Positions 58,390-58,703 of a DNA stretch of 64,000 nucleotides are shown here, in pieces. Made by a program: the position numbers and the translations under genes. Location of the stretch: IMG/VR virus record IMGVR_UViG_3300029305_011823. The stretch is one strand, 5' to 3'. Each line of letters opens with the position of its first letter. The first letter of the stretch is position 1. The notes under the pieces were generated by a model that did not search any database, had not been told where the DNA came from, and was given only the letters and a program-made list of their open reading frames with translations. The stretch comes from a virus (Duplodnaviria; Caudoviricetes).

Positions 58390-58614
58390 GGATATGCTCA
58401 TTATGAGCATATCCAAATAAATAATTTATAGTTAAGTTGTGAAGTTAGCTATAGAGACCGTCCTCTATGAGCATACAGTATAGAGACCGTCCTCTATGAC
58501 TGTACATCAGTTCACAACAATTTGATTGAAGTTAGCTATAGAGACCGTCCTCTATGAGCATACAGTATAGAGACCGTCCTCTATGACTGTACATCAGTTC
58601 AACCAAACCTATTT
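58390..58614 (-). ncRNA. Candidate multivalent hairpin RNA: two three-way junctions, four identical hairpins
   Basis: 75-bp exact direct repeat (58440..58514, 58527..58601), 21-mer x4, compensating outer stems, two promoters upstream and a terminator downstream. Confidence 0.7.
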
Positions 58615-58703
58615 AATCTTTTGTTATCACCTTTATAATATATAATTGAAATTTTACCTTTTTACATTTATTTATAAAATTTAATATAGCTTAACAAATT
58701 AAT

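Follow-up and report, generated by a model that had tools for sequence, protein, structure and literature searches.

The window, that is, the whole stretch of 64,000 nucleotides analysed here, derives from an AT-rich, AR9-like jumbo phage of the gut whose multisubunit RNA polymerase genes are split. A gene at 48999-51122 is, from its translation, RNase R-like and presumably of the clostridial type, which we take as a hint of the host group. Between an Rpb1_5-like polymerase ORF and a second, divergently oriented polymerase gene lies a cassette of 1.4 kb on the minus strand, with the following features in and around it:

54653-56734, Rpb1_5-like ORF (RNA polymerase)
57281-57298, minus strand, terminator closing the 356-aa ORF, conserved in several close homologs
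57288-58358, minus strand, ORF of a 356-aa orphan protein
58366-58373, minus strand, ribosome-binding site of this ORF, read from the sequence
58378-58414, minus strand, intrinsic terminator between RNA and ORF (hairpin 58414-58390, 11-bp stem, U-rich tail)
58436-58518, minus strand, three-way-junction unit 2 (outer stem arms 58518-58511 and 58443-58436)
58450-58470, minus strand, bulged hairpin copy 4
58479-58499, minus strand, bulged hairpin copy 3
58521-58607, minus strand, three-way-junction unit 1 (outer stem arms 58607-58598 and 58530-58521)
58537-58557, minus strand, bulged hairpin copy 2
58566-58586, minus strand, bulged hairpin copy 1 (U-A pair, one-base 5' bulge, 6-bp stem, hexaloop)
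58614-58625, minus strand, late promoter AACA-N6-TA, non-virion RNA polymerase-type, by AR9 consensus (predicted start 58614)
58635-58666, minus strand, early promoter, virion RNA polymerase-type (AT-rich motif 58647-58635, predicted start 58628)
58850-63025, ORF of 1391 aa (polymerase gene, divergent from the cassette)

Two promoters had been proposed for the RNA in the original prediction, an early-type one at 58635 and an AACA-N6-TA one at 58614, and both agree with the consensus sequences of phage AR9, which are AAATATATATTAT-6N-G for early and AACA-6N-TA/G for late promoters (PMC5312081). The early-type motif occurs seven times in the window, the cassette's own copy included, and it is also found 5' of the RNA in L001, L010, L016, L020, L043, L042, L032, and L038. 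The late motif is short and common, with 117 matches in the window, so that the evidence lies in where it sits and not in its occurrence; in most homologous loci it borders the RNA on its 5' side. In the intergenic region 58699-58850, between the early promoter of the cassette and the divergent polymerase gene, two more hairpins are found.

The terminator hairpin between RNA and ORF is predicted with 10 of its 11 pairs at a probability of 0.85-1.0 and no competing fold. Such a hairpin lies 30-45 nt 5' of the start codon in 16/16 tabulated loci, and no phage promoter motif occurs in these 16 loci between terminator and start codon. With a terminator and no promoter ahead of the start codon, the protein would have to arise by read-through. 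A cis-acting antitermination RNA, letting the phage polymerase pass the terminator, might account for this layout. The put site of HK022 consists of two abutting stem-loops just 3' of the promoter, and abutting hairpins lie here directly between promoters and terminator, ahead of an ORF that requires read-through. Such a role is nevertheless very improbable, because the RNA is tied to one gene family instead of long operons, a single phage polymerase would need to read several unrelated hairpin types (see below), and just one of the seven early promoters, that of the cassette, is followed by such an RNA.

The two units proposed with a period of 87 nt were recovered as 75-nt copies (58440-58514 and 58527-58601) that are 100% identical and 87 nt apart, and the 21-mer at the core of each hairpin does begin at 58450, 58479, 58537, and 58566. 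On the minus strand the predicted RNA, of ~230 nt, folds into two three-way junctions followed by the terminator; the fold of 58625 to 58390 has an energy of -79 kcal/mol (z -6.73), and 0/200 shuffles were equally stable. The general fold thus stands as first drawn, but two of its details had to be corrected. The loop is not a four-base ACGG closed by a G-U pair; comparison of homologs defines a hexaloop, G-R-Y-R-G-N, closed by a G-C pair, since relatives carry U, G, or A at the final loop position. The U first drawn as unpaired between the two hairpins belongs to a G-U pair that is invariant in 19/19 units, so that the two hairpin arms abut and there is no linker. The 5' half of the conserved module is formed by an outer stem, a 5-nt strand, a 7-bp arm, a one-base bulge, a 6-bp stem, and the hexaloop; its 3' half follows directly with a 3-bp arm, the bulge, the identical hairpin, and then a 4-nt strand.

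Selection on this structure was assessed in 19 distinct homologous units, in which 95.8% of the alignment cells are paired. Two-sided, compensatory changes occur in 13/30 pairs (all 8 of the outer stem, four in the long arm, and one in the short arm). In the controls, 0/500 shuffles reached the observed values, figures that are not probabilities because the sequences are kin, and alignments slid out of register paired at 20-55%. Homologs keeping the DNA while losing the pairing would have pointed away from an RNA; instead, the pairing is kept and the wobbles on the RNA strand are G-U rather than A-C (38 vs 3), a bias that excludes a double-stranded cruciform and indicates a single-stranded structure, most simply RNA. 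The comparison supports a multivalent RNA that is real and conserved in its structure.

The same evidence bears on a DNA-level element, in which single-stranded hairpins at a replication origin or mobile-element end would be bound by an OB-fold initiator. Single-stranded DNA tolerates G-T pairs, and the OB fold predicted for the adjacent protein resembles SSB, RPA, and MCM domains. Against it, the wobbles are strand-biased and exclude a cruciform, the bounds of the element coincide exactly with promoter and terminator, its genomic position varies and some phages carry two, and related loci contain a GAAA tetraloop and an 11-nt receptor, which make an RNA-specific contact. An element acting as DNA is therefore improbable in the extreme.

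As to known RNA families, the proposed Infernal search against Rfam gave no match at the gathering threshold in the window or in five homologous loci (L056 gave noise only), the best hit being a sub-threshold guanidine-II (mini-ykkC, RF01068) with a score of 19.8 vs a gathering threshold of 32. Both RNAs show ACGG in the loops of a pair of hairpins, but the cassette has neither the flexible linker nor an overlap with the ribosome-binding site or terminator, and the gene 3' of it does not encode an SMR transporter. CsrB/RsmZ-type sponges of CsrA are likewise small RNAs with several similar hairpins, and the suggestion of a CsrA-type sponge rested on the motif AGAGGA. However, GGA straddles the stem instead of being exposed in the loop and becomes GGG in L001, L003, L020, L022, and L043; similarly, the ACGR of guanidine-II is replaced by GCAG, GCGG, or GUGG. 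As both motifs are lost in many homologs, both assignments are rejected. A hammerhead was ruled out by eye, the GAAA junction strand being absent; loop-loop kissing was ruled out because the loop variants share no complementarity; and riboswitch-like switching was ruled out because the terminator pairs are stable and overlapped by none of the alternative folds. H-type pseudoknot repeats were also dismissed, since covariation backs a nested junction that uses nearly all bases and the loops have no consistent complementarity. No such RNA-protein pair or hairpin sequence was matched in the literature, a search from which the unnamed candidates of a catalogue of 10,000 viral RNAs (PMC10690425) were left out.

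The 356-aa protein was modelled with AlphaFold2 from 30 sequences (pLDDT 82, pTM 0.83). The model has a disordered N/I/G-rich segment (1-34), a five-stranded OB barrel (36-135), and a helical domain (~157-348). In a structure search the barrel (residues 36-139) resembled OB folds generically, with Z 7-8.8, the best matches being MCM, RPA, and AspRS (Z 8.5-8.8, rmsd 2.4-2.8 over ~90 residues). The helical domain, searched mainly within the whole model and hardly on its own, had no structural match, and no ToxN, HEPN, or nuclease was listed among the fold matches. OB folds bind single-stranded nucleic acids, which is counted here in favour of a cognate RNA-protein module. The invariant residues R36, N75, D85, H86, and Y115, and the near-invariant R117, D123, and Y124, all lie in the barrel. 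In OB folds the ligand face is formed by strands 2-3 and the 4-5 loop, and this general geometry, with the placement of the residues in the modelled barrel, suggests that they could serve nucleic-acid binding or catalysis. The low-complexity N/I/G/D-rich residues 1-34 (58257-58358) are kept in all family members and, to our eye, are loosely reminiscent of beta-solenoid or amyloid-like oligomerisation motifs.

No named family in Pfam, NCBIfam, PADLOC, or PHROG was found for the 11-30 members searched, one member matching an unnamed PHROG, and neither a profile search of PDB sequences nor ESM Atlas features returned anything for the protein. Matches to ToxN/AbiQ, CptN, and TenpN were absent from Pfam, NCBIfam, PHROG, and PADLOC for these 11-30 members, which bears out the earlier statement that the ORF is not recognisably one of these toxins. 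The conserved HEPN motif (RxxxxH or R-x4-6-H) is absent, and Pfam is empty across 30 members. All genomic contexts seen for the family are phage. The only match among 399 sampled Clostridia genomes, weak and partial, was to a PilZ/YcgR-like protein, dismissed as a homolog because the conserved motif is absent.

Linkage between RNA and protein is the central observation. A search of 1.84 billion representatives returned 25 clusters of the ORF family, including 10 close homologs (42-93% identity). For the close homologs, every contig fetched has the junction directly 5' of the gene while the flanking genes differ, and four Logan contigs start within the last hairpin, as expected for an assembly break at a repeat. 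In total, a structured RNA and a terminator lie 5' of 17/17 intact homologs with readable upstream DNA, counts that are not independent, as the family is small (25 clusters) and its members are kin; the 17 lineages span down to ~23% identity and varied gene neighbourhoods. Conversely, the dual-hairpin pattern was found in just three IMG/VR contigs, each time 5' of an ORF homolog, and the records of these three phages contain no second such site. The exact 20-mer of the repeat was absent from IMG/VR, and no similar DNA or protein was found among 50,697 GenBank phages. In phages with a 69%-identical polymerase the cassette is absent at the corresponding position; one of these carries a distant homolog at another site, and one, an 82%-complete record, has none. 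The loci compared show promoter, multi-hairpin RNA, terminator, and promoterless ORF to be inherited as one cassette, and the differing neighbourhoods, together with its absence at the matching position in polymerase relatives, imply that it moves as a unit. The RNA motif and the protein family are both real and undescribed, and together constitute a mobile cassette of jumbo phages.

The hairpins evolve in a characteristic manner. Copies are identical within a locus in 18/19 units, yet there are 9 types across 12 loci; this identity within loci with variation between them is concerted evolution. Copy number changes as well: the identical protein P0006 is preceded by two units in L005 and by one in L006, which parallels the arrays of antitoxins (2.1-5.5 repeats). 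At 35% protein identity (L027) the RNA has the identical junction architecture. Phage G005 carries two paralogs (L020 and L043) that share 33% identity; each follows two junctions, and their hairpins are not the same. The L043 hairpin differs from that of its paralog by compensatory changes and by its loop. Among the most distant homologs, at 23-26% identity, the arrays of L032, L035, and L037 repeat an unrelated bulged hairpin, whose loop has 13 nt, five or six times; in L042 and L056 a different bulged hairpin with a hexaloop occurs five times, the two loci differing by a C-G to G-C swap; and the RNA of L038 is multibranched and lacks identical repeats. These comparisons show that the hairpin type changes from one deep protein clade to another and from paralog to paralog. 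Protein P0006 is also found behind two hairpin variants that differ in the bulge base and the last loop base, and since this fine variation is independent of the protein, only the deep changes of the hairpin can reflect specificity.

A covariance model of the RNA found, besides the linked copies, one orphan cassette in the near-identical phages G004 and G006 (G004:150551-150645 and G006:222264-222358; ~1420-1690 in L068 and L066), flanked by a Ca/Na antiporter-like gene and a holin-like gene. It retains the promoter, one junction, the terminator, the ribosome-binding site, and the start codon, but its ORF stops after six codons resembling the N-terminus of the family, and no homolog lies nearby; its two hairpins are non-identical and have new 9-nt loops. 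In L056, the second paralog of G006, a stop at codon 69 follows an intact five-hairpin array. No intact gene lacking the RNA was found among the 17 lineages. An RNA that outlives its ORF is the pattern expected for an antitoxin and its toxin, and these two events, one of them possibly an assembly error, are consistent with it; the asymmetry is equally expected if the RNA has a function of its own.

Such a function could be that of a multivalent decoy for a host protein, whether a defence sensor, a toxin, or a regulator, with the ORF as a co-transcribed counter-defence gene directed at that same host system. Phage PhiTE offers a precedent: its expanded pseudo-ToxI repeats mimic the host antitoxin, the cognate toxin gene being absent (PMC3475682). 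Both phages encode expandable RNA repeats, and the identical multi-copy display, the copy-number expansion, and the survival of the RNA without the ORF agree with this explanation, as do the several hairpin types per phage, which could correspond to several host targets. Here, however, the RNA is followed by a dedicated phage protein family, and the searches turned up no host counterpart: the junction RNA occurred in 0/151 sampled Clostridia genomes, four dual-hairpin matches in 185,579 genomes were unrelated repeats, unscored by the model, and the 399 genomes sampled for the ORF held nothing beyond the partial match mentioned above. A decoy, moreover, need not stay bound to one protein family over >75% divergence. 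We regard it as distinctly unlikely.

Of all readings, the type III-like one pointed out in the original prediction has the best support, because the RNA accompanies the ORF family wherever it occurs. Type III loci have been searched for as tandem RNA repeats followed by a terminator and an ORF (PMC12283969), and the cassette presents a promoter, tandem repeats, an intrinsic terminator, and an ORF in this order. It shares with ToxIN/AbiQ, CptIN, and TenpIN (PMC12283969) the variable repeat number, but has nested hairpin junctions instead of pseudoknots and no conserved linker usable as a toxin cut site. As both the protein family and the RNA fold differ, the cassette would work like these systems, or like AbiF, without being a member of either. 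It is closest in logic to AbiF(Cd)-RCd22 of the Clostridioides difficile prophage phi027 (abiF motif, RF03085), a tested system in which the short RNA is dominant and neutralisation is direct (bioRxiv 10.1101/2025.04.15.648962; PMC12373285). This pair, too, is phage-borne and consists of a promoter, a repeated-hairpin RNA without pseudoknots, a terminator, and a gene without internal promoter. In contrast, AbiF is a HEPN/Abi_2 RNase, whereas the phage protein has an OB fold and neither an Abi_2/HEPN match nor RxxxxH; the phage RNA repeats a three-way junction, presents four hairpins, and lies behind jumbo-phage polymerase promoters, and RF03085 gave no match to it at gathering or at E<=10.

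On these comparisons, the chances are about even that the cassette is a phage-encoded cognate RNA-protein module working like a type III toxin-antitoxin pair. Several findings count against it: the protein shows no recognisable fold or motif of a known nuclease or toxin, the U-tract of the terminator is typical for the source phage and not visibly leaky, the fine variation of the hairpins does not follow the protein, and one lineage (L038) lacks identical repeats. The linkage, the paralog-specific hairpins, and the OB fold would be accounted for equally by a non-toxic cognate pair, in which the protein is an RNA-binding regulator or structural partner and the RNA a titrating sponge that sets a threshold or timer for free protein, a scaffold, or part of a functional ribonucleoprotein with a host or phage target. 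That no catalytic fold is recognised favours such a pair, as do the early and late promoters, which suggest a steady RNA pool. Yet the phage records searched contain the hairpin nowhere else, so that a regulon is not visible, the retention of the RNA after ORF loss is less expected, and the absence of the family from one 82%-complete relative suggests that it may be accessory. A non-toxic pair is accordingly unlikely, if deserving of serious weight.

Were the cassette type III-like, the phage RNA polymerases would transcribe the RNA both early and late, and most transcripts would end at the terminator, so that the RNA would outnumber the mRNA made by read-through. Each bulged hairpin would bind one protein subunit through the OB fold, with one back-to-back hairpin pair per junction engaging the protein, and two to six identical hairpins per RNA would silence the read-through product and keep a harmful, nucleic-acid-directed activity off. 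The RNA supply could fall when phage transcription stops, when the genome is lost from a carrier cell, or when a competing phage shuts the cell down; protein freed by the shortage would then arrest the cell. Candidate purposes include carrier-state addiction, exclusion of rival phages, and timed host shut-off. A fairly unlikely, broader proposal is that jumbo phages with RNA polymerases of their own use multivalent, programmable-looking hairpin RNAs of mutually orthogonal types to hold a new class of effectors with an OB fold and the new helical domain, for phage-versus-phage exclusion, the orphan RNAs being collected as immunity to the proteins of rivals.

To our knowledge, the proteins paired with RNA antitoxins fall into very few folds, the ToxN-like and AbiF/HEPN ones. 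If a type III-like function is correct, the cassette would represent a third, unrelated pairing, in which a repeated three-way-junction RNA partners an OB fold and a new helical domain; so far seen in jumbo phages only and under promoters of their own polymerases, this pairing would widen the type III-like systems and indicate RNA-based conflict between giant phages. Even with a non-toxic protein, orthogonal hairpin-protein pairs would constitute a new RNA-binding family, possibly useful as tags of the MS2/PP7 kind.

Further structured elements were observed around these genes. Right 3' of the ORF, at 57070-57200, lies a second structured non-coding element with an 11-bp outer stem around two hairpins; it is absent after the homologs L009, L012, L017, L027, L032, and L038 and present, with some covariation, in L001, L003, L005, L010, L016, L020, and L022. 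L038 (~5740-5950) and L056 (~2790-2930) share a separate multibranch RNA just 5' of the terminator and ORF, containing a GAAA tetraloop and the canonical 11-nt tetraloop-receptor sequence and without an Rfam match; it may represent an antitoxin of a second type or else stand as an RNA of its own. In L027 (1-11254) and L009, the cassette lies on the opposite side of the polymerase gene of 1385-1413 aa, followed by a TSCPD-domain gene, showing that the polymerase locus has been locally rearranged.
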